Origin: an uncultured virus (IMG/VR IMGVR_UViG_2061766007_000513)
Lineage: Duplodnaviria; Heunggongvirae; Uroviricota; Caudoviricetes
Virus record (IMG/VR): IMGVR_UViG_2061766007_000513
Length of the DNA: 38,086 nucleotides
Reading direction: 5' to 3' (one strand)
Below are positions 4,042 to 27,291 of the stretch, piece after piece. The stretch's first letter is position 1; each line of letters begins with the position of its first letter. The notes under the pieces are model-generated. The model saw nothing but the letters and a program-made list of their open reading frames with translations, did not search any database and was not told the DNA's origin. A program made the translations under genes and the position numbers.

Positions 4042-4214
4042 TTTGGTTACACTTTGATTACTGTAATCAAATGAGTGTCCCGAAACCCGCATAAATACGG
4101 CATTTTTAACGGAGAAAATGGGATTTGAAGTCTAACTGTAAACCCATAAATTCTTGAAATATAAGGGTTTACACCGCATTTTCACCCGTATACATTTGAT
4201 TACACTTTGTTAAG
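4042..4214 (-). other. attP: core matching a tRNA-Ser 3' end (4110-4129) with arm-type repeats
   Basis: Minus strand TTCAAAT-CCCAT-TTTCTCC-G parses as T loop, T stem, acceptor strand and G discriminator; TTTG(A/G)TTAC(AC) repeats at 4042, 4053, 4063 (inverted) and 4195 flank it; adjacent to the int stop. Confidence 0.7.
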
Positions 4215-5381
4215 CCTGTCCCTAATCTCGGACACCTGCTCGTTGTTAAAATAATAGTACGTCTTTGTGGTGAGTATCTCGGTATGTCCCATCTGTTTTT
4301 CAATAACCTTTTCCGGCACTCCCGCATCTATAAGTTTCGTAGCGTAAGTCTTGCGGATTTTATGAAAACTCCTGTGGGGCAGATTCAACTCCTTGCATAT
4401 CTTTGTGATCCGTAATGATAACCATTTGGCTTTTATCCTGTTACCGTCACGGGTAAATATGTACTCGCAATCGCCCGTCATGGATTTCAGTTTTTCCAGA
4501 ATGGCTATGGCATTGTCAGATAACACAACCTGCCTATGACCGTCACGCCCTTTAGTGGATTCCCGCACATCTGCTATGCGTTCCCCATGCTCACCTATAT
4601 ATTTAATCTCTGTTCGTGAAACCGATAAAAAATCGCCCAAGTAGTCTGACCATTTAAGGGCAGCGACTTCGCCAACCCTTAAACCTGTGTCAAACGCTAA
4701 AGCTACACCCAATGAAAGTAAATCGGGATTATCGGCTATGTAATTCTCTATCCGTGTTTCTTCGTCTTTGGTAAATACCTGTTCTTCATCTTTAACTATC
4801 CGTTTTTCAAAGATTTTGTTTGATAACTGTAGTTCCGATAGAAACAGGCTTATCCTCATATCGGTATAGCCATGCTTACGGGCATATACCATAGCACCTG
4901 TAATCAGGGTTCTCATGTTACCCCAATTCTTAGCGGTCAGATGTTCTTCGGCAATCTTACTCTTGATAAAGTTTTCAAGATAGAGTTCATCAATTCTCTT
5001 AACTTCTTTCTTTTCAAGTTCCGTCCCATGGATATACCGCTTGTAGTCAGCCTGATACCTGTCATACGTTGACTTCTGTATCTCGTTGTATTCCAACTTT
5101 TCAGCAATCCATGATTCATAACATTCCTGAAACTTGATCTTAGGGTCTTTGTAAAATTCTATAATCGCATCTTCAAGGTCTGCCCTAACCCTCTTTGCTA
5201 TCAGCCTCCTTTTTCCGGCTACATCTACATAGGCTTTCCACCTGCCATCCGTAGCGTACCATATTTCTGTCTGGTCAAGAATTTTTTGTCTATTCATCTT
5301 TTCGTATTCTTGCCGTATGAAGGTGAAATCAATTATAGAACTGTTTTCCAAAAAATGCAAGAGGTCTTTTGCATCATCCAT
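4200..5381 (-). CDS. int: tyrosine recombinase (phage integrase)
   Basis: GLRVGE (R), TKG (K), HKIR (HxxR), MGH and C-terminal Y; ~390 aa; next to attP. Confidence 0.92.
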   Translation of the reverse strand: MDDAKDLLHFLENSSIIDFTFIRQEYEKMNRQKILDQTEIWYATDGRWKAYVDVAGKRRLIAKRVRADLEDAIIEFYKDPKIKFQECYESWIAEKLEYNEIQKSTYDRYQADYKRYIHGTELEKKEVKRIDELYLENFIKSKIAEEHLTAKNWGNMRTLITGAMVYARKHGYTDMRISLFLSELQLSNKIFEKRIVKDEEQVFTKDEETRIENYIADNPDLLSLGVALAFDTGLRVGEVAALKWSDYLGDFLSVSRTEIKYIGEHGERIADVRESTKGRDGHRQVVLSDNAIAILEKLKSMTGDCEYIFTRDGNRIKAKWLSLRITKICKELNLPHRSFHKIRKTYATKLIDAGVPEKVIEKQMGHTEILTTKTYYYFNNEQVSEIRDRLNKV

Positions 5382-6144
5382 GAGCAACACCCCCGAACAT
5401 CAAATGGTTGTCTTGCCTCCAATAAGTGTTTCCGCCCCTTTTAACTTTGCCAAGAACTTCTAAACGGGTCTGATAGCACTTTGAGCAAACCTTTGCATCC
5501 ATATCCAAAGGATCACCGCAGACATAACATAACCCGTATGACACTCTTTCGGAACGTCTTATAGTTCCTATAACCTTTTTGTTGTATTTCCGTCTTTCTT
5601 TGTATCTGTGCTTATCCAGACAACTCTGACAGAAAACTCTGCCCTCAATCACCTTGTTTTTACCGCACTGATAACATATCCCCTGTTCTTTTAAGCGTTC
5701 CCGTCTTTCCTTTGCGTAATTCTTCGCCCCACCATAATTCTTTTCAAGGGATTGCTTTACGCCTTCGTTCTTTTTGATAGCACACTCTGGACATANNNNN
5801 NNNNNTCCCTGTTCCTTTAAGCGTTCCCGTCTTTCCTTTGCGTAATTCTTCGCCCCACCGTAATTCTTATTAAGGGATTGCTTTACGCCTTCGTTCTTTT
5901 TGATAGCACACTCTGGACATATTTTCTCGTCACCGAAAAGAGTGTTAGTCTTGCAATAGTAACATATCTTATGTGCTTTATACCAACTTCGCTGCATGGC
6001 TGTATAAGCACTTGCGATCTTCGCACATTCCTCACAATACACTTTTCCGTCAACTGTCGCTTTACGTCCGCAACGGGTACATAAGCCGTTTTTCTTCTTC
6101 TCATTTCGCCATGCCTTGTTTTTTGCTGAATCTTTCATTATCAT
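5374..6144 (-). CDS. multi-CxxC zinc-ribbon basic protein (internal duplication across a gap is likely an assembly artefact)
   Basis: Repeated CxxC...CxxC units. Confidence 0.7.
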   Translation of the reverse strand: MIMKDSAKNKAWRNEKKKNGLCTRCGRKATVDGKVYCEECAKIASAYTAMQRSWYKAHKICYYCKTNTLFGDEKICPECAIKKNEGVKQSLNKNYGGAKNYAKERRERLKEQGXXXXCPECAIKKNEGVKQSLEKNYGGAKNYAKERRERLKEQGICYQCGKNKVIEGRVFCQSCLDKHRYKERRKYNKKVIGTIRRSERVSYGLCYVCGDPLDMDAKVCSKCYQTRLEVLGKVKRGGNTYWRQDNHLMFGGVAHG

Positions 6145-6202: not shown

Positions 6203-6769
6203 TTATTTTTTCAAGTTTACATAGTATTCATATTCTTCTCTTGTAAGTTGTTTCCATTTGTAGCCATGTGTTTTCTTTCTCTTGCCGATAACACAATCAT
6301 GAATATGTGCAGTTTTAAAATTGTTTAATCTTCTTGCCTCAACCTGACTTGAATAGACATTTAATATATTTCCTTCGGAATCCAATTTTGCTACAGGACA
6401 ACAATATATTAGTCCATCATTAATAGCCTGTGTCATATTCTCCGAAACTGTACCCCAATAAAGGTTTTCAACGCTACAGTTCAACTTATTATTATCTTTG
6501 TGACACACACATTTTTTGTTTTCAGGATTATCCAAAAAGGTCAATGCAACCAATCTGTGTACTGTACAAACAATGCCTTTTTCATTGTCATTATACAATG
6601 ATACCCACTTGTACCCACGGACATTGACCATTGGATGTAATAGTATCGGTTCTTCAAATATAATTTTATGATGATGCCGATACCTGTACATAGATAAGAT
6701 GTTTCCTTCTCGGTCAATTAAATATTTCCCGTCAAATCCCGCAATCGGTTTAAACTCACTAATATCCAT
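6203..6769 (-). CDS. NUMOD4-HNH homing endonuclease
   Basis: FKPIAGFDGKYLI (NUMOD4), VHRLVALTFL...CHKDNNKLN..VENL, NUMOD1-like C-terminus; GGAGG RBS. Confidence 0.88.
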   Translation of the reverse strand: MDISEFKPIAGFDGKYLIDREGNILSMYRYRHHHKIIFEEPILLHPMVNVRGYKWVSLYNDNEKGIVCTVHRLVALTFLDNPENKKCVCHKDNNKLNCSVENLYWGTVSENMTQAINDGLIYCCPVAKLDSEGNILNVYSSQVEARRLNNFKTAHIHDCVIGKRKKTHGYKWKQLTREEYEYYVNLKK

Positions 6770-6837
6770 ATATTTACCCTCCATAAATGATGTTACTGTT
6801 GTTATCATCTATGAAATGGGTACTGACGTATATCTGG

Positions 6838-10548: not shown

Positions 10549-11094
10549 TTAGACTTTAGGTACAAATGTTATTGTTTTGTCTGTTGGTTGTTTCCGTTTT
10601 CCATGTAAAATTTCTGACACCCGATTTATGTGCATATTTTCATTCTCGCATAATTCTGATAGCGATTCATATTCTCGATAATCTCCATCTTTGTATGTTA
10701 TAGCCACCTTTTTAGCTCGCCGTTTTACACTAAATTTCCAAAAAGGAAAATGGCTGCCTGAACCTCCTCTATGCAATTTTTTCATTGTGTTAGGGTTTTG
10801 CATTTGTTCTTTACTTGTAGCCCATCTAAGATTTTCTACTCGGTTATCGTCCTTGATTCCGTTAATATGGTCTACTGTTGGTTTGTTTTCAGGATTATTT
10901 AAAAAAGCAATAGCAACCAATCTATGTGCTTTAACTGTACGGGGTCTTTTTTCTGAATATAAATTGTAATATAAATAGCCTAATCTATCTTTTTTCGCTT
11001 TTATAATATGCCCGGTTATTTTATTTTTAACACGCCCGACACTTGAAACCTCATATTGTTCTGGATATACAGGACTATCTTTCCATAATTCCAT
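10549..11094 (-). CDS. NUMOD4-HNH homing endonuclease
   Basis: ELWKD...YEVSSVGRV; HRLVAIAF...VDHING.KDDNRVENL. Confidence 0.9.
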   Translation of the reverse strand: MELWKDSPVYPEQYEVSSVGRVKNKITGHIIKAKKDRLGYLYYNLYSEKRPRTVKAHRLVAIAFLNNPENKPTVDHINGIKDDNRVENLRWATSKEQMQNPNTMKKLHRGGSGSHFPFWKFSVKRRAKKVAITYKDGDYREYESLSELCENENMHINRVSEILHGKRKQPTDKTITFVPKV

Positions 11095-11119: not shown

Positions 11120-12766
11120 TCATAAGTATTGTTTGTAATCTCCATTTTCCCCAAAATGTCTTTCTGCTACAGCCATAGGAAATTTCTCTATCTCACTTGA
11201 CCAAACAGGCTTTATGCCACTTCTTGTTGCACACAAAGGAAATCCAGAAATACCATCAAAAAGACTTGCCATAGTAGGATTATCATAACCGTCTTTCTTT
11301 AACTGCTTTGCGATTCTATCCATAAGCCACTGCCAAAATGGTAACGCTATGCTGTTTCCGGCTGCTTTATATTTCGGAGCGTCAGAATCCTTATGCAATT
11401 TGCCTTTGCTATCCGTCCATTCTCCAATATCCATCCATCCGTCCGGATAACCCTGCAGGCGGCCACACTCAAACGGGGTCATTCGTCTTACAACGGTGCT
11501 GAACACCGCACCCGGACCTTTGGCTGTCATGGAACCGATTTTCTCCTCTTCGATGCTGAAATCGTACTTGGCATTCTTACCTTGGTTATAGGATGCACGA
11601 TCAAGTCCATAAGAAACAACAGCAACCCCACCCTGATTACAAGCCGGACTACCACCATTAAGGTCAAGCGTTCTGGAAGTGTCAGCCTCATACACTCCCG
11701 AATGTGGATTTGGGGATTTCATAGCGTTACTGTCATAAGAAGAAATACCATAAGCTACGGCGTGTTGTTCGACAGTATTTAAGGTATACATGGTATCTGA
11801 TTCTTTATATCCATCACCTTTATGTGATTCTCTTACTCCATTACCTTCTATACAAACAACGGATTGCGGATCGTTATTGTCCTTAATCGAATCATCAGGT
11901 TCAACACATACACAAGGTACATGATGTGGGTCAGTAGCGGCCCCCGTTATTGACATTGCAACGTCACCCGTAGCGGTTTGATTATATAAATCAACTCCAA
12001 TAACTGACGGACCCGAATGTGTAGGACTATTCCCACTCGATGCGTTTAATGTCGCTGCCGTTTCCCCTGTTATAGTTTGGTTATACAAATCACAACCAAC
12101 TACGGCAACCCCACCATGATTACTGTCAGGCTTTTCACCGCCTGTATCTAATGCTCTCGATCTGTCTGTTTCGTAGCAATGCGCTCTCTGATTTTTTGTA
12201 CCCTCAGACGAAATGCGCACATCATAGGTCTTTATGCCCCCCCCCGATTGCTTCTCTAAGGCTATTCTCAGAAGTTCCGGCAGTTCCTTGCCACGTTTCT
12301 TCGCCCGGTTCAGTATTCCCTGACAAGCCTTTGCCGACAACCTGTATTTCGGGTCTGGATTGCTCTCTAATATCTGTGACAATTTTGTAGGATTCGGGAT
12401 CATTGGTTTCTCCGAGCAATTCAAATAGAATTTCTGGGGCTGTGTGTCCTCCGTAGTCAGCAAGTACACATATGCGTTTTCTTCTTTGTGGGACACCCCA
12501 GAACTGTGCGTCATGCACTCTCCAAGCAACGCTATATCCGTCACCCATGATACATCCGGCATTAGCCCATTTCTGTCCTTTTGCAAGTTGAGGAACATAG
12601 GCGTTTTCGTCAGCCACCTTACAGGTTTCTTCAAGCACGGCTCTGAAATCTTCTCCGTTGTTTGAACTAAAGGCTCCGCACACGTTTTCCCAAACAGTGT
12701 ATCGTGGCTGTATATGTCGAAGATCGACAACTGATTGTCGCATTGATAATTGTTTTTTAGATTCAT
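11120..12766 (-). CDS. C5-cytosine methyltransferase chain B: EcoHK31I-beta-like segment, variable/TRD region, motifs IX-X, then motifs I-II
   Basis: LSQILE..PDPKY.LS.KACQGIL.RA..RGKELP; RRMTPFEC.RLQG.PD; YKAAGNS; C-terminal SLFDGISGF...SEIE; own AAGGAG RBS inside chain A. Confidence 0.85.
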   Translation of the reverse strand: MNLKNNYQCDNQLSIFDIYSHDTLFGKTCAEPLVQTTEKISEPCLKKPVRWLTKTPMFLNLQKDRNGLMPDVSWVTDIALLGECMTHSSGVSHKEENAYVYLLTTEDTQPQKFYLNCSEKPMIPNPTKLSQILESNPDPKYRLSAKACQGILNRAKKRGKELPELLRIALEKQSGGGIKTYDVRISSEGTKNQRAHCYETDRSRALDTGGEKPDSNHGGVAVVGCDLYNQTITGETAATLNASSGNSPTHSGPSVIGVDLYNQTATGDVAMSITGAATDPHHVPCVCVEPDDSIKDNNDPQSVVCIEGNGVRESHKGDGYKESDTMYTLNTVEQHAVAYGISSYDSNAMKSPNPHSGVYEADTSRTLDLNGGSPACNQGGVAVVSYGLDRASYNQGKNAKYDFSIEEEKIGSMTAKGPGAVFSTVVRRMTPFECGRLQGYPDGWMDIGEWTDSKGKLHKDSDAPKYKAAGNSIALPFWQWLMDRIAKQLKKDGYDNPTMASLFDGISGFPLCATRSGIKPVWSSEIEKFPMAVAERHFGENGDYKQYL

Positions 12767-12965
12767 TTCTCTGCTCCTTAATTATTCGTATCTGTTCCAT
12801 AAACAGACCTGATCTTGTGGTTTCATCATCACCCATTTCTGAATGTTTAAGACCTGCTCTCTTACCTGCCACGGACAAATCCTGACAGGGACTACCGCCG
12901 GTTATCACATCAACTAAAGGTACTTCATAACCCTTTATCTGGCATATATCTCCATAATTTTTCAT
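12222..12965 (-). CDS. C5-cytosine methyltransferase chain A (motifs III-VIII, catalytic Cys)
   Basis: GDI, GGSPCQDLS, RSGLF, WENV, GVPQRRKR; lacks N-terminal motif I. Confidence 0.88.
   Translation of the reverse strand: MKNYGDICQIKGYEVPLVDVITGGSPCQDLSVAGKRAGLKHSEMGDDETTRSGLFMEQIRIIKEQRNESKKQLSMRQSVVDLRHIQPRYTVWENVCGAFSSNNGEDFRAVLEETCKVADENAYVPQLAKGQKWANAGCIMGDGYSVAWRVHDAQFWGVPQRRKRICVLADYGGHTAPEILFELLGETNDPESYKIVTDIREQSRPEIQVVGKGLSGNTEPGEETWQGTAGTSENSLREAIGGGHKDL
12237..12245 (-). repeat. G9 homopolymer at the junction of the two methyltransferase frames
   Basis: Nine C on the plus strand; minus strand AATC-G9-CATAA. Confidence 0.9.
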
Positions 12966-15258: not shown

Positions 15259-15783
15259 TTAACCACCCTCTTTTCCCTGTAACAAATCTATAATCAGTTT
15301 TGCCGATTCATCCGGCTTGCAGAAAAGGAACTTACAGCCGTATCGTTCTTCCATAGTGTGACAAATCTTCGCAAGCTGAGTACCGGGCATTGCTTTCGGA
15401 TAAACAGGCTTGCCATTTTTCTTGATGTAAAGCCGTGGATTATGCCAATTATTAAGATCATCAATACATCTGACCGTTGCGTTCCAGACAGTTTTGCGAT
15501 AGTCAACATACCTGCCTTCGTTTTCGACTACGATATACAACTTAATTCCGGCTTCTTTACTGCGTAAAAGTTCATCACGAAACCTAACATGGTCGGTCTG
15601 TACGTCTTGAATCAACTCGCCAATATCTTTTTTGGTGTCTATACAAACGCTTTGATTAGTTGGTAACGTATAATCACCTGCGTACAATCGACACCTGCGT
15701 ATCTCTATCCCGTGTTTCTCAAACCATTCATGCTTTAAATCATGTTTTCCCGCTTGCTGCCGAGTATCTTCAAGAAGGAGCAT
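15259..15783 (-). CDS. ERCC4-domain nuclease (putative resolvase)
   Basis: EDTRQQ...L.AGDY...IDTKKD..EL...RF..EL.R. Confidence 0.8.
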   Translation of the reverse strand: MLLLEDTRQQAGKHDLKHEWFEKHGIEIRRCRLYAGDYTLPTNQSVCIDTKKDIGELIQDVQTDHVRFRDELLRSKEAGIKLYIVVENEGRYVDYRKTVWNATVRCIDDLNNWHNPRLYIKKNGKPVYPKAMPGTQLAKICHTMEERYGCKFLFCKPDESAKLIIDLLQGKEGG

Positions 15784-16316
15784 TATTTCTTCCCCCCTTT
15801 ACGTCTTTTACCTAAATGTATTTTGTGAAATGGGCTATTTAAAACTTTCTCAATAATGGAATCGTAATCATAGTTACCTTTTTTCTCATATCGAATTATG
15901 GTTTTTGGGGATATGCCTGTTCTTTCCCATAATTCAGTTAAAGTTATTTTCTCACCTTTGTAAGTAATAAAATGATTAGTCCTTCTATTAAAACATTGTT
16001 CTCTTTTCGTGACCCAAGTACAATTTTCAGGGCAATAATTTCCATTAACATCTATACGTTCAATGGTTAAATCATCTGTGTAACCATGTGCTTTAGCCCA
16101 TTTAGAGAAGTCAACATAATTTTCCCAACGTTCATCAATAGTTATCCCACGTTGACCATAATCCTTATAGAACTTGTCTTTTGGGTTATAACACCTATCT
16201 TTCATATCAGCATAGATTTGATACAATCTTGTTTTTGATTCCCCATGTTTAATCAACCAAGGTCTTTCAGTACAATGGTTTGCCCGTGATTTTTTTGTTT
16301 TTTCTTCAAGTATCAT
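15783..16316 (-). CDS. HNH-like homing endonuclease
   Basis: KHGES.TRLY...MK.RCYN...YG.RGI...LTIERIDVNGNYCPENC.W. Confidence 0.82.
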   Translation of the reverse strand: MILEEKTKKSRANHCTERPWLIKHGESKTRLYQIYADMKDRCYNPKDKFYKDYGQRGITIDERWENYVDFSKWAKAHGYTDDLTIERIDVNGNYCPENCTWVTKREQCFNRRTNHFITYKGEKITLTELWERTGISPKTIIRYEKKGNYDYDSIIEKVLNSPFHKIHLGKRRKGGKK

Positions 16317-16432: not shown

Positions 16433-16852
16433 TTAAGCGTTAGGACTTTCGGTAACAAATTCAGCTCCTTCAAGTCCAGACAGGTCCACATTTGATGTGA
16501 TGTAACTGGAAGTATCGGGATCACCTTCTTCATACTTCCCATCCGCAATTTCAACTCTTGATACATCAATATGAGGTCTATAAAAAATACCACCTTTTTT
16601 GCTCTGGATAGGCGGGTTTTTCAGTNNNNNNNNNNNNNNNNNNNNNNNNCCTTTAGTCAGAAACTTCTGGCAAAATTCAGCTTGTTTCCCATAGGTTTTC
16701 AACCAAAAAAAGTCCGTAGAATCCTCTTTTGTGGTGTAATCATCTTTAACAGCTATCCCAAAATCACAAAATATATACTTTTTATCCCCTACTTCCATTT
16801 TTGATGTTCTCGGGTCCGTTGATGTATATCCAGATAAGGTTATATGATTCAT
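16433..16852 (-). CDS. ssb: single-stranded DNA-binding protein
   Basis: MN...L.G....DP...F.IAV...TDFF....YGKQAEF...L.K OB fold with acidic tail. Confidence 0.8.
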   Translation of the reverse strand: MNHITLSGYTSTDPRTSKMEVGDKKYIFCDFGIAVKDDYTTKEDSTDFFWLKTYGKQAEFCQKFLTKXXXXXXXXXLKNPPIQSKKGGIFYRPHIDVSRVEIADGKYEEGDPDTSSYITSNVDLSGLEGAEFVTESPNA

Positions 16853-17561
16853 AACTCGTAGATTATCCCCCTTCTTGCAACGCTTACATTTGCAGCCGTA
16901 ACCTTGCTGATTTCATTCTTGAATATCTGTTCATCCGAATTACTTTCGCTCATATGACAGATAATCACATTCTTTAAGGTCTTTTTCCTGTCGCTCACTT
17001 TTATAAATTCAACCCCGGTATCAAGGCTCATGTGTCCGTTAAGAATATGTCTTTTCTTTGTTTCTTCCTCGTTCTCAATTTTGGAATCCATATAATTGAT
17101 ACCTAAAAGTAAAGTGTCTAATTCCGGGAATCGGTATTTGCAAAATACGCAATCGGTCATGTAGACCATTTTTAACGGCTCAACATCACTTGTTATAAAA
17201 AATCCGTAAATAGGACACTCTGAACCATCACCGTTTGAATGAACAAACTTGCCATCTGAATCCGTCAAGGCAAAATACCTGACTACAAAACCCTTTAGAT
17301 AATCAGATTTTGGCTTTTCTAAATAAGGGGCTACTATTGGTATTCCCATCTTCTCTAAGTCCCTTGCTGCTAACGCATGGTCAAGCGTTAAAGATGTGAG
17401 TGCGTTACAAGGCAACCGACTATTTTTGATACCTGAAAATCTATTCCGACTTTGATTTCCTTTATGGAAATACCACAATCAAGCAGTAGGATATGACCGT
17501 CATTATCTTTTAATGCGTAACAGTTCCCTTTTGACCCTGTACCCAAACACTTCACATTCAT
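16849..17561 (-). CDS. MBL-fold metallo-hydrolase/nuclease, split by an 8-nt gap at 17390-17383 (recoded or pseudogene)
   Basis: ATG 17561 gives MNVKCLGTGSKGNCY...LLLDCG...CLVTHSHL*; resumes as DHALAARD...VHS...YMTD...GHMS...CHMS in the 16849..17478 frame; the joined product is 234 aa with intact THSHLDH. Confidence 0.85.
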
Positions 17562-18112
17562 TTGACCACCCCCTTTTCTTTATATTTCCAGACAAAACCA
17601 CCCGCCTGTTTGCGAATTGAACCTTGGGCATTATATGGTTCTCTATTTGCAACTTGATTAATATTTCTTGAACATACGCCTGTCACCTTTTCTGCTTCTT
17701 TGGCATTTATGTGTTCTTGAATAAACTTTCCGCCTAATGCAAACTGCATTATGTGTTTTTGACCAAAGCGATTCTTGTTTACCATAGCCTCATAAACAGC
17801 AGGATTATTAGCGGTCATAGACATATGTTCTTTTGCCGTTAGTGCTTGTAAATTTGAGATTACATTGTTCTGTTTATTCCCATCAATATGATGCACATGA
17901 TACCCTTTAGGGATTTCCCCAATAAATGCCTCATATACGCATCTATGGATTCTTACAGTTTCCCATTTGCCATCTTTGAATAAGCGGTAAGTTAAATACC
18001 ATCCTTTAGAATTTGTAACTTTTACCCGCTTTTTATGATGCCGAATATGCCCTAAGTTGGAAACTTCATACAAACCCTCATAACCTTTAATCCATTTCCA
18101 TTGTTCTTTCAT
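17558..18112 (-). CDS. NUMOD4-HNH homing endonuclease
   Basis: EQWKWIKGYEGLYEVSNLG; IHR.V..AF...VHHIDGNKQNN..SNL; stop overlaps the MBL start (ATGA). Confidence 0.9.
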   Translation of the reverse strand: MKEQWKWIKGYEGLYEVSNLGHIRHHKKRVKVTNSKGWYLTYRLFKDGKWETVRIHRCVYEAFIGEIPKGYHVHHIDGNKQNNVISNLQALTAKEHMSMTANNPAVYEAMVNKNRFGQKHIMQFALGGKFIQEHINAKEAEKVTGVCSRNINQVANREPYNAQGSIRKQAGGFVWKYKEKGVVK

Positions 18113-18154
18113 GTTGACCTCTTTTACCCACCATCCCACCACTATCACGGAGGT

Positions 18155-18919
18155 TTAAGCCGGGTTCTCGACAACAGGCTTAACCTCTGCGTCCTCAAAA
18201 GGAAAATCAACACTGTTTGCGTCATTGGCTACCTCGGCATCCCTAATATCAACAGGATCGGTAGCTATATCTGTGTCAGCCTCAAATATCTGTTTCTGTT
18301 CGGGATTCTCAAAGTCAATCTCGATACGCTTACAAAGTCTGCGGATAACTGATTTTTTCTGCATTTCGCCGGAAAAGTCTTTCCATGCACCCGCATTACC
18401 CATCTTTGATTTCTTCCTGACCGCTTCAAGTTCTTCCATGTTCATTGTTTCAACCTGAATGTCCCCGTCCTCAAACTCAACTACAGCAAACGCACCAACT
18501 ACAGGCTTGTTGTTAAATGCCTTCGGCTTGAATGTTACATAACGCTTATTAGCGTCTATCCCGGTTTCAAACACATCATCTTCTCTTACAAGTTCCGCAT
18601 AGATGTTTTTGACTTTATGGATTGCATATTTCTTTATGAGTTTCTGAGCCCCGATATATGAAGTCTGATACTGTAAGTCTGAACCGTAGCCGACAAGATA
18701 AGCCTCTTTGTTAAAGAAATCCAGACCTAACATAGCTCCCCTCATAAGACCTGCCATGATCTTAGNNNNNNNNNNTTCATTTAACAGGGACAAAGCATTT
18801 TGTACGAACCTTGCCTTGTTAAAATCCTTCGGTAAAGCGTCCTGAATAGCGTCCAACTTATCAGTGATAACCACACTAAAATTCTTTTTTTCATCATTCT
18901 TTACGATTGCTTCTGACAT
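18155..18919 (-). CDS. recT: RecT family single-strand annealing protein
   Basis: GA.LGL....EAYLV.YG...Q.SY.G...V.E.D.F...W.....EM.KK.V.RRL.K. Confidence 0.88.
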   Translation of the reverse strand: MSEAIVKNDEKKNFSVVITDKLDAIQDALPKDFNKARFVQNALSLLNEXXXXKIMAGLMRGAMLGLDFFNKEAYLVGYGSDLQYQTSYIGAQKLIKKYAIHKVKNIYAELVREDDVFETGIDANKRYVTFKPKAFNNKPVVGAFAVVEFEDGDIQVETMNMEELEAVRKKSKMGNAGAWKDFSGEMQKKSVIRRLCKRIEIDFENPEQKQIFEADTDIATDPVDIRDAEVANDANSVDFPFEDAEVKPVVENPA

Positions 18920-18921
18920 GA

Positions 18922-21003
18922 TTAACCCTCCTTTACAAATAATTCTTTATTATCAGCCACTTTCAGATAAATCATCTGACAGGGCATAACGATCTGTGAC
19001 TTTGTGTTATCATCAAGCATTTCACTTGAATCCAGAAATACGGGATAATGCTCACTAAAGAAATTCTGTAAACCGCTGACTATATCAAGTTTTGCCCTGA
19101 TCTGCATAGCCGTATTAAGTGAAGCCCCTAATTCCTTGCCATCTACAAAGACCTCGCAACATTCCTTGTACTCACCGTTTTTCTGATACTTAAAGAATGA
19201 GAACTTAACTATCTGGAAGTGCTTATTGATACTGTCTGTAAGCAGCTCATTCTTGTGTTTCTGGATAAGTGATAACTGATACAGGATTTTCTCTGAATTA
19301 GCCTTATTCTGTTCAAATTCCATCTGTGAAGCCCTTAAATCGGCAATGCTATCATCTATCCTTGCGTTATCACCTGCCTTAGATAACTGAATCTCACAAT
19401 TCCTTAATTCATCATGGAGATTAAGTTCCTCGGCTTTTAACAATGTCATGTTTTTAAGTCCGGCTTTCTTGCTTTCCATAAGGGCATTGTTAGCAGCGAT
19501 CTCAGATTCTAACCTGTCCTTATCAACCTGATATGTCTGCGTTTCTTCCATAGCCCCGTCAAACGCATTTAAAGGCTTATTTAAGGCGGTTTCTATATCA
19601 GCCTTATCATTCATAGCCTTTTGAATATTTTTGACTTTTTCGGTTCTTTCCGTGCGTTTAATGGCTAACATAGACATAAACTCTGTAATCTCTTTATGCA
19701 GGTCAGCTATCCTTCTCAACTTGTCAGCCTCAAAATCATTTTTCATTTCTTCGATTTTGTCTGATTCATAAACCCTATGACATACAGGACATACAGCAGT
19801 AGTTTCATCAAAAACCTCTGCTTCGATTTTTGAAATCGCATCCTGACCCTGTTTAATAGATGTTTCAAGCCTTGTAATCGAATTGCCATGTATATCTACC
19901 TCGTTATTCCACCGGGAAATGTCACGCTCAATCTGTGATAACTGTTCCTGTAACCCCTTGCGTTCTGAATATATCTTTTCCTCTAAGGCTTTTTTCTCAG
20001 CTTTCTCTTTCTGAACGATCCCGGAAAGTTCCATTTGTAAAGCCAAATCCCTATTACGGAGTTCATTAAGTTCACGTTCTGTCTGTTCACAAGTAGTCTG
20101 TTCGGTCTGATTATTCGCAAGTTTTTCTTTAATCATGTTCTTTTGCAGCTCTAACGCTGAAAAGTCTATATCAACCTTACTTAACTCCAGACCCTCTATC
20201 TTAGCCCGTAACAGTTCCCCGTCCTTGCCGTAAACCTCTCTAATTTTTCTAAGGTTAGCGTTCTGCATGGATGCTACTTCATCAAAGGTATAGTCTTTAA
20301 GTAACAATGTAGCCTCGGCACATCCGTCCATCTGTAAAGCAACCTCGTAATCGGTAATGTCACTAACCATGCCGAAAAGAACTTTTCGCATTTCATCTTT
20401 CTTGCCGGACAGGAACATATCAGGATGTGAAAGTGTTAAAAATCTATCTGTAATGCCGTACTCGGCTATTTTCTGCTTGAAATCCCTAAGCCCGTATTCA
20501 ACGGAATTAACAAGGTATGTTGACGAAAAGCTGACCGCATCAGCAACGCCCTCAACTTTAGATTTCTTAACTGTTCTGGTAAGNNNNNNNNNNTTATCTG
20601 TAATGCCGTACTCGGCTATTTTCTGCTTGAAATCCCTAAGTCCGTATTCAACGGAATTAACAAGGTATGTTGACGAAAAGCTAACCGCATCAGCAACGCC
20701 CTCAACTTTAGATTTCTTAACTGTTCTGGTAAGCCTTCTTTCAAGTGTTATGTGCTTGCCATCTACTACAGCCAACACCTCAACAGAAGGTGTGGCTTCT
20801 TCCATATCTAATGGGAATACCGCCGGATTTGACGCTAAAGATTCTGAACAATCAGCCATTAACCAATACCATCCGCAAGCTATGGATGATTTTCCTGAAC
20901 CATTTGCCCCGCTGATCGTTACGTTAGAATTGTTGAGCAAAAGGTTTTCATGCTTTAAGCCTTTGAAATTATGGAGAATAATTCTCTCAATCGTAAGATT
21001 CAT
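18922..21003 (-). CDS. Rad50/SbcC-like coiled-coil ATPase (internal duplication across a gap is likely an artefact)
   Basis: Walker A GANGSGKS, coiled coil, CPVC zinc hook, LNTA signature, Walker B VFLD. Confidence 0.88.
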   Translation of the reverse strand: MNLTIERIILHNFKGLKHENLLLNNSNVTISGANGSGKSSIACGWYWLMADCSESLASNPAVFPLDMEEATPSVEVLAVVDGKHITLERRLTRTVKKSKVEGVADAVSFSSTYLVNSVEYGLRDFKQKIAEYGITDXXXXLTRTVKKSKVEGVADAVSFSSTYLVNSVEYGLRDFKQKIAEYGITDRFLTLSHPDMFLSGKKDEMRKVLFGMVSDITDYEVALQMDGCAEATLLLKDYTFDEVASMQNANLRKIREVYGKDGELLRAKIEGLELSKVDIDFSALELQKNMIKEKLANNQTEQTTCEQTERELNELRNRDLALQMELSGIVQKEKAEKKALEEKIYSERKGLQEQLSQIERDISRWNNEVDIHGNSITRLETSIKQGQDAISKIEAEVFDETTAVCPVCHRVYESDKIEEMKNDFEADKLRRIADLHKEITEFMSMLAIKRTERTEKVKNIQKAMNDKADIETALNKPLNAFDGAMEETQTYQVDKDRLESEIAANNALMESKKAGLKNMTLLKAEELNLHDELRNCEIQLSKAGDNARIDDSIADLRASQMEFEQNKANSEKILYQLSLIQKHKNELLTDSINKHFQIVKFSFFKYQKNGEYKECCEVFVDGKELGASLNTAMQIRAKLDIVSGLQNFFSEHYPVFLDSSEMLDDNTKSQIVMPCQMIYLKVADNKELFVKEG

Positions 21004-26256: not shown

Positions 26257-27291
26257 TTATAAAACTATTCTCATTTCAGGTTGAATATCTTCTCTAATAC
26301 CATTTTCGTCAAAGTATTTTTCAAAGATTTCATCTGAACTTAAATCATTATATACATCTACCATAGCTACAGAACTCCAACCAAAGAATTCTCTAATAAC
26401 ATGATACGGTAAGTTTAGTTTTACAAGTTTTGTATCGACATAGTGTCTAACTGCATGCCAATAGAAGTTTTTCTTAAGTAATTTTGAGAATACTTCTTTC
26501 CACCAATCCATTGTATCTATTGAAATAGGTTCATTTGGATTAGATTGTTTTGGAAATAGCCATTCACTTACTATTCCTTTTTCTTCTCTTTCTTTTAACC
26601 ATAATTGTAAATATGGATCAAAAGAATGTTTGAGAGTATAGCAATAAAGCATTTTACCTTTTGATGTTCTACCTTTTGTTTTTACCTTTTCAGGTGTTTT
26701 GTAAATAGAACCATATAAGACAAAGTCGTCATTAAAATACCAGCTTTTAAATCTAGGTATCTCAGCTTTTCTTCTTCCAGAATTCATAGCCAAACTTAAA
26801 GCACAAGCTTGTTTATATGCTTTATGTTCAACTAAAGTATTAAGTAACCATTCAAGTTCATCATCTTTTAATATCGTTTTCTCTCTAACCGGAGTTACTA
26901 TTGGAGATTCAATCTTTCGTATAATAGAGTGATAACCAGAATATTCTTCTTCCTCATCTAAAATATTTTCAATAAAATTAGACAAAGAAGAAATAGTAGA
27001 TTTAACTCTTCTTAAACGATTAGGACTCCACTCCCAAAAACTTATAGCCCTTAATTGAAATTTCATAAATTCTCTTTTAGTAATTTCAATAAAGAACTTG
27101 TTATTATTCTCTACAACATTCCAACAGAAAAATATGTTTAAATCATTTCTGTATTGAGCTATTGTAGTAGGTGATTTGTCAACTGATATAAGGTATTCCT
27201 CAAATGAATACATCAGTTTCTTGTTTTTGTTATTGATTTGCTGTAAAAGCTCCTCACTACAAATGTTGTTGTACTTTGTTTCTCGTGCCAT
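26257..27291 (-). CDS. second tyrosine recombinase
   Basis: SGRRKAE (R), KTKG (K), HAVRH, FGWSS and C-terminal Y; SAM-like N-terminus; AT-rich. Confidence 0.88.
   Translation of the reverse strand: MARETKYNNICSEELLQQINNKNKKLMYSFEEYLISVDKSPTTIAQYRNDLNIFFCWNVVENNNKFFIEITKREFMKFQLRAISFWEWSPNRLRRVKSTISSLSNFIENILDEEEEYSGYHSIIRKIESPIVTPVREKTILKDDELEWLLNTLVEHKAYKQACALSLAMNSGRRKAEIPRFKSWYFNDDFVLYGSIYKTPEKVKTKGRTSKGKMLYCYTLKHSFDPYLQLWLKEREEKGIVSEWLFPKQSNPNEPISIDTMDWWKEVFSKLLKKNFYWHAVRHYVDTKLVKLNLPYHVIREFFGWSSVAMVDVYNDLSSDEIFEKYFDENGIREDIQPEMRIVL

Follow-up and report, generated by a model that had tools for sequence, protein, structure and literature searches.

A stop-containing micro coding gap at one position of phage metal-dependent hydrolase genes, a candidate site of short translational bypassing beside HNH endonuclease genes

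The uncultured virus scaffold IMGVR_UViG_2061766007_000513 (38,086 nt; "the window" below is this whole stretch) carries a gene for a metal-dependent hydrolase of the metallo-beta-lactamase (MBL) fold that is interrupted, within the codons for its metal-binding motif HxHxDH, by a few extra bases, the first three of which form a stop codon. We found that this micro coding gap is kept at one position of the gene in at least six sequence forms. Comparison of the sequences leads us to favor, at a probability of roughly 0.6, the reading that the gap is linked to a homing endonuclease and is crossed in translation by a short stop-hop. The DNA comes from a bovine gut metagenome and represents a phage of the temperate type, with the hydrolase gene in its recombination module (ATPase, RecT, HNH endonuclease, MBL hydrolase, and the single-stranded DNA-binding protein SSB). 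A preliminary description of the same DNA had proposed an unusually short coding gap, bypassed during translation, within an ATPase-RecT-MBL-SSB module. The four genes are present as described, but the HNH gene between RecT and the MBL gene had been overlooked. The bypass reading itself gained support, and it came through every comparative test that we ran on the sequences.

The gap and its recurrence among relatives

The minus strand of the window reads CAC (17402-17400) TCA CAT CTT (17393-17391) TAA (17390-17388) CG (17387-17386) CTT (17385-17383) GAC CAT GCG TTA (17373-17371). The first open reading frame (ORF1) stops directly after the first CTT, and the frame that runs from the second CTT at 17385 to 16849 encodes 178 amino acids (aa) and begins LDHALAARDLEKMG (LDHALAARD). 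The HxHxDH motif of the window gene is complete only when the gap is skipped. We confirmed the junction sequence of the preliminary description and its 57-aa ORF from the ATG at 17561 that ends THSHL. A skip from CTT to CTT would restore THSHLDH in a 234-aa chain, as it had stated, and the N-terminal and C-terminal pieces (N and C parts below) are colinear on the family profile. It had also noted that no N gap lies near the site: of the 28 runs of N in the window, none is less than 700 nt from the junction, the nearest being 16626-16649 and 18766-18775.

For the insert itself, we compared the window with public sequencing runs, four in number and from four studies, none of which is the probable source sample, and with IMG/VR contigs. 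Two IMG/VR contigs from two other metagenomes (L001 and L002), whose protein is 94% identical to that of the window, have the identical 8 extra nt, and nearly all differences around the insert are silent in the frame concerned. The junction is also spanned, with 0 gaps, by contigs of two additional studies (X3 record 2, 582 nt, and X4 record 9, 390 nt). More diverged contigs from the same sets (X3 record 3 and X4 record 10) have TAG in place of TAA and one base fewer, which makes them the 7-nt variant. No contig without the insert was present among the contigs of the compared public runs, and a run guessed to be RNA (X20) covers 16882-17031 of the window only, not the junction. The 8 nt that the preliminary description had suggested verifying by read mapping were thus found in independent contigs of two studies. 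Two of the outcomes it had named as contrary did not occur: the insert is not missing from the reads, and it is not a singleton under relaxed selection.

We then searched for relatives with the two pieces of the gene. The C-terminal piece returned 48 protein clusters, 36 of them full length (230-252 aa) and 11 short forms, which begin at the Met of EKMGIP or in an out-of-frame reading of the THSH codons. The N-terminal piece returned 21 clusters of short ORFs, of which 18 end in H[S/A/T]HL-stop, two in HSHLR or HSHLRS, and one is truncated elsewhere. Representatives of exactly 56-57 aa are numerous in a library clustered at 50% identity. We fetched 20 short ones (56-83 aa), and 17 end exactly at HxHx, with x being L in nine, G in two, Q in two, and T, N, S, and Y in the others. 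Three long members of the clusters of 57-aa ORFs (P0258, P0262, and P0264) turned out to be unrelated proteins.

At the level of DNA, six junction types were recovered. Four of them (V1 to V4) make up what we call the Leu clade. V1 (the window, L001, and L002) reads CAT CTT TAA CG CTT GAC CAT, with 8 inserted nt and a frame change of +2; V2 (L008, which equals L015) reads CAT CTT TAG G CTT GAC CAT (7 nt, frame +1); V3 (L016) reads CAT CTG TAA G CTA GAC CAT (7 nt, frame +1); and V4 (L017 and L018) reads CAT CTT TAA GGGTG CTA GAT CAT (11 nt, frame +2). The Tyr and Gly clades came from a locus search with a divergent 57-aa ORF, P0220, which yielded 67 further viral loci. Of these, 43 have the Tyr-clade junction CAT TAT TGA C GAY CAT (4 nt, frame +1) and 16 have the Gly-clade junction CAT GGT TAG GA GAC CAT, which equals GGT-TA-GGA-GAC (5 nt, frame +2). 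Six loci are intact (HEHNDH in one, HAHKDH in three, and HEHGDH in two), one is rearranged (L184), and one is the other end of a contig already counted. Where the window has TAACG between the two Leu codons, its relatives have TAGG, TAAG, or TAAGGGTG, and the other clades have TA and T. A stop codon directly follows the proposed take-off codon in all six types, and TAA, TAG, and TGA are all used. The expectation that homologs would be repeatedly split at HxHx with variable gap sequences was therefore borne out. The expectation of matched codon pairs was borne out in part: proposed take-off and landing codons are identical in two types (CTT/CTT) and synonymous in three (CTG/CTA, CTT/CTA, and GGT/GGA), but the largest clade, with TAT TGA C GAC, is unmatched, two of three bases agreeing (TAT/GAC).

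Further searches added no junction type. Scans with P0144, P0122, and P0166 gave 19 intact distant relatives and three unrelated short ORFs. The gene had no blastn match among GenBank phages, and of 401 genomes from the order of a relative found in a metagenome-assembled genome (MAG), four had a match and none was gapped at this site. A scan of viral contigs for the 14-mer 5' of the take-off codon found 91 stretches, of which 12 entries passed the context filter, all of them known Leu-clade contigs; the same scan with an 18-mer farther upstream found nine stretches, only known loci and chance matches.

The gap is old, as judged by the synonymous divergence (dS) between variants, and both of its flanks are under purifying selection in their own frames. 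Among the Leu-clade variants, the ratio of nonsynonymous to synonymous substitution rates (dN/dS) is 0.025-0.11 for the N part at dS 0.7-3. For the C part it is 0.09-0.12 in the 3 of 10 pairs with estimable dS, the other seven being saturated. In the Tyr clade, the C part has a dN/dS of 0.13-0.18 at dS 0.6-1.1. The preliminary description had asked for a dN/dS below 1 on both sides of the break, and in the Leu and Tyr groups the values are 0.03-0.18. Both ORFs are open and of full length in all Leu-clade loci, and in 59 of 59 Tyr and Gly loci ORF1 has 57 codons and ORF2 is open over 173-192 codons. Within the Tyr clade, the mean pairwise difference is 0.02-0.06 in ORF1; it is 0.05 over the first 30 nt past the stop and 0.13-0.24 farther on. 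This island of low diversity fits repeated gene conversion at a cut site, and strong constraint would look alike.

Association with an HNH endonuclease gene

Directly upstream of ORF1, with its stop codon overlapping the ATG of ORF1, the window has a gene for a free-standing HNH endonuclease. A homolog of this gene ends just 5' of ORF1 in 43 of 64 gapped loci versus 0 of 34 intact loci. Among the seven Leu-clade contigs, a full homolog is present in two (the window and L008, at 63% identity) and five are without it. Among the 57 Tyr and Gly loci with enough upstream DNA, 41 have a full homolog (42-52% identity), three have a 30-aa remnant, and 13 have none. No intact locus has the full homolog, and two of them (L201 and L203) have a different endonuclease-like ORF of 319 aa with a C terminus that resembles the HNH protein of the window. 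In the three loci with the remnant (L135, L150, and L158, at about 2361-2450), it lies upstream of a gapped hydrolase gene, so that the endonuclease has decayed and the gap has been kept.

The boundaries of the segment that holds the gap were visible in a blastn comparison of the window with its closest intact relative, L010. Identity is 94% through the ATPase and RecT genes to 18174, there is then no homology, and the match resumes from 17382 at 92%. The nonhomologous segment, a putative mobile cassette, holds the RecT tail, the HNH gene, the replaced first 57 codons (67% protein identity), the gap, and the landing codon. L001 has the same right-hand (3') boundary, and the HNH gene is absent from L001, a gapped contig 94% related to the window. 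The C part of the window gene is 93% identical to that of the intact L010. When the other Leu-clade variants are compared with the window, the N parts are 86-89% identical and the C parts only 59-61%, which indicates that the gapped N part travels separately from the rest of the gene. The HNH ORF thus shows the marks of a free-standing HNH element, in that it lies between conserved genes, is present or absent in close relatives, and has clean boundaries. From these sequence comparisons, a tie between the gap and a homing endonuclease is very probable, and the upstream HNH gene that the preliminary description missed is probably the reason that the gap exists.

Several other loci showed rearrangement or further endonuclease genes. 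One contig (X4 record 11) matches the window 3' of the junction and switches about 20 nt past the landing codon (behind 17362) to an intact gene of the HIHKDH type; it is a natural recombinant with its breakpoint adjoining the gap. In L184 (2501-3115), behind an HNH gene, the first 41 hydrolase codons are fused in frame to unrelated sequence, and the gene has been destroyed by rearrangement. The window has two more HNH_3 endonuclease genes, at 6203-6808 and 10549-11094, one with NUMOD4 and both with I-HmuI-like NUMOD domains. A window ORF at 15783-16316 has a weak MerR match and resembles the N-terminal half of the 319-aa ORF of L201 (1551-2510); the two are possibly another type of homing endonuclease.

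Decoding of the gap

Under the reading that we favor, a ribosome would translate 57 codons and pause with CUU, paired to peptidyl-tRNA(Leu), in its P site and the stop codon UAA in its A site. Some of the ribosomes would then not terminate but let the mRNA slip forward, the tRNA would re-pair with the next CUU 8 nt downstream, and decoding would restart at GAC, giving a single 234-aa chain with the exact HSHLDH motif. The same rule applied to the relatives would give the moves CUU-CUU (+7), CUG-CUA (+7), CUU-CUA (+11), GGU-GGA (+5), and UAU-GAC (+4, with two of three pairs). As to origin, the gap would be part, or a remnant, of a free-standing HNH homing-endonuclease element that entered the DNA between recT and the hydrolase gene. 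Its added bases would interrupt the endonuclease target in the conserved DNA that encodes HxHxDH and so provide self-immunity, and translation would tolerate them, as with the MobA and gene 60 cassette of phage T4 but in miniature.

The spacing of the motif bears directly on how the two ORFs could be joined. In a profile hidden Markov model built on 36 uninterrupted relatives, the N pieces cover positions 1-56 and the C pieces positions 58-235 in all five Leu-clade sequences, and so two Leu codons compete for the single position 57. Leu occupies this position in only 3 of 36 intact proteins, yet every Leu-clade sequence has it on either side of the gap. HxHxDH is present in 36 of 36 intact relatives with constant length, and H54, H56, D58, and H59 are invariant in an alignment of 34 sequences. 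Any single-step shift would put one to four extra residues between the second His and the Asp, and only a hop would be expected to restore HxHxDH across the junctions. In the Gly (+5) and Tyr (+4) clades, the proposed landing site is, by our reading of the sequences, the first downstream triplet that gives the P-site tRNA two to three base pairs.

Joining of the ORFs by single-step frameshifting, +1 where the insert has 4 or 7 nt and -1 or +2 where it has 5, 8, or 11 nt, with one to four extra residues accepted in the motif, seems to us unlikely. CTT TAG G and TAT TGA C do place a stop in the A site behind a codon permissive of +1, and the Tyr clade is without a matched landing codon. Yet the frame changes by +1 across the inserts of 4 and 7 nt and by +2 across those of 5, 8, and 11 nt, so no single direction of frameshifting fits them all, and close relatives would need opposite ones. 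The -1 cases have no slippery heptamer, GGT TAG GA offers neither -1 nor +2 re-pairing, a +1 slip in the window meets TGA after two codons, and the motif spacing is fixed in all the intact relatives and across the alignment. The earlier judgment that a hop fits better than a -1 frameshift therefore stands, on the opposite shift directions, the missing heptamer, and the invariant spacing.

It is likewise improbable that the gene is truly split, with a 57-aa HxH peptide and a DH protein of about 178 aa made separately and assembling into an active enzyme. Such an arrangement would agree with purifying selection on both parts and with the position of the break, which lies in the loop after strand 47-51 in a structural model of the intact relative P0003. 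The parts of the split topoisomerase of T4 are also described as assembling, in the text available of bioRxiv 10.1101/2022.08.31.505936. The start codons that it calls for are the difficulty. In the Tyr and Gly clades, no ATG, GTG, or TTG occurs in the DH frame from the last upstream stop up to DH. The 12 codons from DH to the first Met vary synonymously in the DH frame (TCG/TCA/TCT, TTA/TTG, and GAC/GAT), and frame 0 gains a stop within this stretch in L128. The missing start and the synonymous variation together indicate that ribosomes reach the DH frame no later than DH and do so without a canonical start. In the Leu clade, possible TTG and GTG starts differ between variants and share no ribosome-binding site. 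Separate translation would also leave unexplained both the repeated Leu or Gly codon on the two sides of the gap and the constant stop right after its first copy.

We consider it quite improbable that the hydrolase is dead, the break being a scar, from endonuclease action or slippage, that is carried along by a selfish element, and the conservation a result of recent spread. The very low diversity of ORF1 in the Tyr clade and the looser constraint on the Gly-clade C part are in keeping with this, as is L184, where the gene has proved destructible behind an HNH gene. In addition, CTTGTAACGC (17411-17402), just upstream of the junction, resembles CTTTAACGC at the junction. Against it, dS between Leu-clade variants exceeds 1 with a dN/dS of 0.03-0.12 on both sides, the Tyr-clade C part combines appreciable dS with low dN/dS, and both ORFs are full length and open in every Leu, Tyr, and Gly locus. 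The low dN/dS of both flanks and the open ORFs in all loci rule out a young pseudogene. Last, an assembly or sequencing artifact of this scaffold is already refuted: the window is a gapped scaffold (28 N runs) in which a stretch around the N run 20584-20593 is duplicated and another gene is frameshifted at a G9 run, but the site has no homopolymer, the break recurs at this position in more than 60 related loci, and the same 8 nt in L001, L002, and the contigs of two independent studies exclude it.

A number of observations weigh against a stop-hop tied to an HNH element, and they concern its codons, its signals, and its link to the endonuclease. Only two of six junctions have the same codon for take-off and landing. 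In the 43 loci of the Tyr clade, the triplet that precedes the resume point is GAC, and a Tyr codon for landing is missing. In this clade a +4 move onto GAC would give HEHYDH, and a +1 shift, which may occur instead, would give HEHYDDH. The combination CUU-stop is the shift site of prfB, and at CTT TAG G a prfB-like +1 slip is also possible. Two N-terminal ORFs known as proteins only (P0057 and P0061) end HSHLR and HSHLRS, with the stop not adjoining the Leu codon. The constraint on the Gly-clade C part is weaker (dN/dS 0.3-0.56). The HNH gene is missing from 13 of 57 Tyr and Gly loci and 5 of 7 Leu-clade contigs despite the gap, and a strict one-to-one link is rejected on these counts; conversely, L201 and L203 have an intact HSHLDH gene behind their different endonuclease-like ORF. 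The loci also share ancestry, and one large data set supplied many of them, so that their counts are not counts of independent events.

RNA structure gave no help to the bypass reading either. The preliminary description had taken a hairpin as a hallmark of bypassing, and the TAACGC/GCGTTA stem does exist. However, the 91-nt fold of the window has a z-score of -0.54, with 58 of 200 shuffles folding as well, the stem is not conserved in the other junction variants, and no common stem was found among the Leu-clade sequences. We therefore rejected the hairpin as a bypass signal. For the five Leu-clade sequences, local folds of 48 nt have energies between -11.4 and -3.9 kcal/mol, near the means of mononucleotide shuffles, and by eye the take-off region could pair with the DLEKM codons about 35 nt downstream. 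Finally, synonymous sites in the 17 codons before take-off are more often conserved (10/16 versus 7/30; Fisher p = 0.011, with a cut-point chosen post hoc). A recoding signal, a nascent-peptide constraint, or a conversion tract could each account for this excess.

Gene surroundings, significance, and comparison with known systems

Both pieces of the hydrolase match phrog_392, "metal-dependent hydrolase", ORF1 with an E value of 3.6e-18; ORF1 also matches Pfam Lactamase_B (E 2e-4, 21.8 bits, slightly below the 22.7 cut-off). The model of P0003 has a predicted local distance difference test score (pLDDT) of 92.5. Its closest structures, at template modeling (TM) scores of about 0.5-0.7, are YhfI, ElaC/RNase Z, a PhnP-family diphosphatase, and Apyc1. 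By sequence profile, the best solved relative is the anti-Pycsar protein Apyc1 (E 4e-6, N-terminal third only), and one homolog, from a GenBank phage, bears the annotation "anti-Pycsar nuclease". A true metallo-beta-lactamase was considered and rejected, the top structural neighbors being phosphodiesterases and RNases and beta-lactamases only weak sequence matches (E 1e-3 or worse). The model and profile suggest an MBL-fold phosphodiesterase of the RNase Z/YhfI/Apyc1 kind, which may act as a nuclease partner of RecT or as an anti-defense phosphodiesterase. Of the name "MBL nuclease" used in the preliminary description, the MBL fold is supported by phrog_392 and the P0003 model, and the nuclease role is a possibility only.

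The features around the junction are collected in Table 1. Elsewhere in the window there are two tyrosine-integrase genes, at 4200-5390 and 26257-27291, and one relative was found in an Eubacteriales MAG; together these suggest a temperate phage or prophage. No phage-encoded tRNA was found, and a search of Rfam gave a single sub-threshold chance match in the HNH/RecT region (22.6 bits versus a gathering score of 86). In the ATPase ORF (18922-21003), about 46 aa are repeated on either side of the 10-N run 20584-20593, most likely a scaffolding duplication. A C5 cytosine DNA methylase gene on the minus strand is split in two overlapping frames (ORFs 12222-12965 and 11120-12766) at a run of nine G (12237-12245), which phase variation, slippage, or a homopolymer sequencing error could all explain.

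Table 1. Features around the hydrolase junction, in positions of the window
Feature	Position	Strand	Remark
ORF1, N-terminal 57 codons of the MBL-fold hydrolase	17388..17561	minus	ATG at 17561; ends THSHL + TAA
Proposed take-off codon CTT (Leu57)	17391..17393	minus	from sequence; Leu just before the stop in 18/21 related N-terminal ORF clusters
Coding gap TAACG, 5 nt	17386..17390	minus	first 3 bases are the stop, in the A site at proposed take-off
Proposed landing codon CTT	17383..17385	minus	homology to intact L010 restarts at the next base, 17382
ORF2, C-terminal part of the hydrolase, 177 codons	16849..17382	minus	from resume codon GAC (DHALAARD...)
6-bp stem TAACGC/GCGTTA	17371..17390	minus	8-nt loop; present, no support as a signal
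Free-standing HNH endonuclease gene (NUMOD4 + HNH_3)	17558..18148	minus	Pfam HNH_3 1.2e-17, NUMOD4 1.1e-11; phrog_59
Segment without L010 homology, putative mobile cassette	17383..18173	minus	about 791 nt replacing 188 nt of L010
RecT recombinase gene	18155..18919	minus	Pfam RecT 7e-31
SSB gene	16433..16852	minus	Pfam SSB 8e-6; contains N run 16626-16649
SMC-like ATPase	18922-21003	minus	
ERCC4-type nuclease	15259-15783	minus	

A wider proposal, which we put forward tentatively and hold to be somewhat less probable than its opposite, is that stop-initiated micro gaps with shifts of 4-11 nt are a general self-immunity device of free-standing phage homing endonucleases and are hopped without elaborate signals. 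The endonuclease would target the DNA that encodes the catalytic motif of a neighboring gene, and the allele that bears the element would escape through a few extra bases. Ribosomes of gut Bacillota and other hosts would then need as little as two-of-three re-pairing (UAU to GAC). If this is true, short-range bypassing would be a widespread, naturally used decoding event, and annotation would systematically miscall such genes as pseudogenes or split genes. Gene callers split the hydrolase genes described here into a 57-aa "hypothetical protein" and a truncated hydrolase, and such genes are therefore lost from phage annotation. Beyond T4 gene 60 with its relatives and one yeast mitochondrial genome, the natural bypassing that is known consists only of candidates. 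More than 60 natural loci with six junctions at one position of one enzyme, and with shifts of +4, +5, +7, +7, +8, and +11, would provide a ready mutational series for the minimal rules of bypassing. The tie to HNH genes would turn the logic of MobA and gene 60, in which an insert blocks self-cutting and translation ignores the insert, into a recurring strategy.

In our literature search, neither gaps in this hydrolase family nor micro gaps linked to HNH genes turned up as already reported. Among described cases, the mitochondria of Magnusiomyces capitatus have 81 bypass sites with an unused codon in the A site, according to the sections available of a review (PMC5009743), and there too short inserts are skipped and codon matching is sometimes imperfect. 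Unlike the hydrolase gaps, those elements, as far as these sections describe them, lack a link to an endonuclease. The mitochondrial inserts are longer than the gaps in the hydrolase genes.

Synthetic stop-hops and hops of +5 and +6 were made in E. coli (Weiss et al. 1987, as summarized in the same sections of PMC5009743), and the review, dated 2016, states there that no natural occurrence of stop-hopping was known. In those constructs, as summarized, the peptidyl-tRNA leaves a codon followed by a stop and re-pairs a few bases downstream with no need of an elaborate signal, as we propose here; the hydrolase cases differ in being natural, conserved, and frame-changing. The engineered hops are said to have been of low efficiency.

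In terminase genes of Streptomyces phages, candidate bypasses of 10 nt and 7 nt after UUA have been proposed, and mass spectrometry in E. coli supported bypassing for one of the inserts (PMC10732093, in the portion accessible). As far as that portion goes, those inserts resemble the hydrolase gaps in being short and frame-shifting, in lying in a conserved phage enzyme, and in presenting a slow-to-decode codon in the A site. They have also been interpreted by the same argument, namely that single-step frameshifting would lengthen a conserved junction. They differ in that their trigger is the rare sense codon UUA and the role proposed is regulatory, whereas the hydrolase gaps begin with a stop, are tied to an endonuclease, and occur in dozens of variants.

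The closest parallel is T4 gene 60. In T4 and its relatives, the HNH element MobA carries the 50-nt bypass cassette of gene 60, and several T4-like phages have lost the endonuclease and kept the bypass (bioRxiv 10.1101/2022.08.31.505936, in the text available). So far as this text describes gene 60, both systems have an HNH endonuclease gene directly upstream, a short first ORF (46 codons in T4 versus 57 here), a stop after the take-off codon, and, here outside the Tyr clade, a landing codon for the same amino acid. In both, the 3' end of the element lies at the landing codon, the endonuclease is often lost with the gap retained, and the break falls in the metal-binding region of an enzyme. 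They also differ in many respects. The gap here is 1-8 nt (a shift of 4-11 nt) versus 50 nt, in a different host gene and with no sequence relation. No conserved take-off stem-loop was found at the hydrolase junctions; the T4 cassette, in a topoisomerase gene, has such a stem-loop, GGA/GGA codons, and a KKYK nascent-peptide signal. The hosts are gut anaerobes rather than Enterobacteria, and there are six junction sequences versus one cassette family. In contrast to MobA, cleavage and immunity are putative for the HNH endonuclease here, by association only. The likeness to gene 60 drawn in the preliminary description thus holds for the stop and in part for the matched codons, but the hairpin is unsupported and the traits that define the cassette family are absent. 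We therefore regard the hydrolase gap not as a member of the T4 gene 60 cassette family but as its probable functional analogue only.

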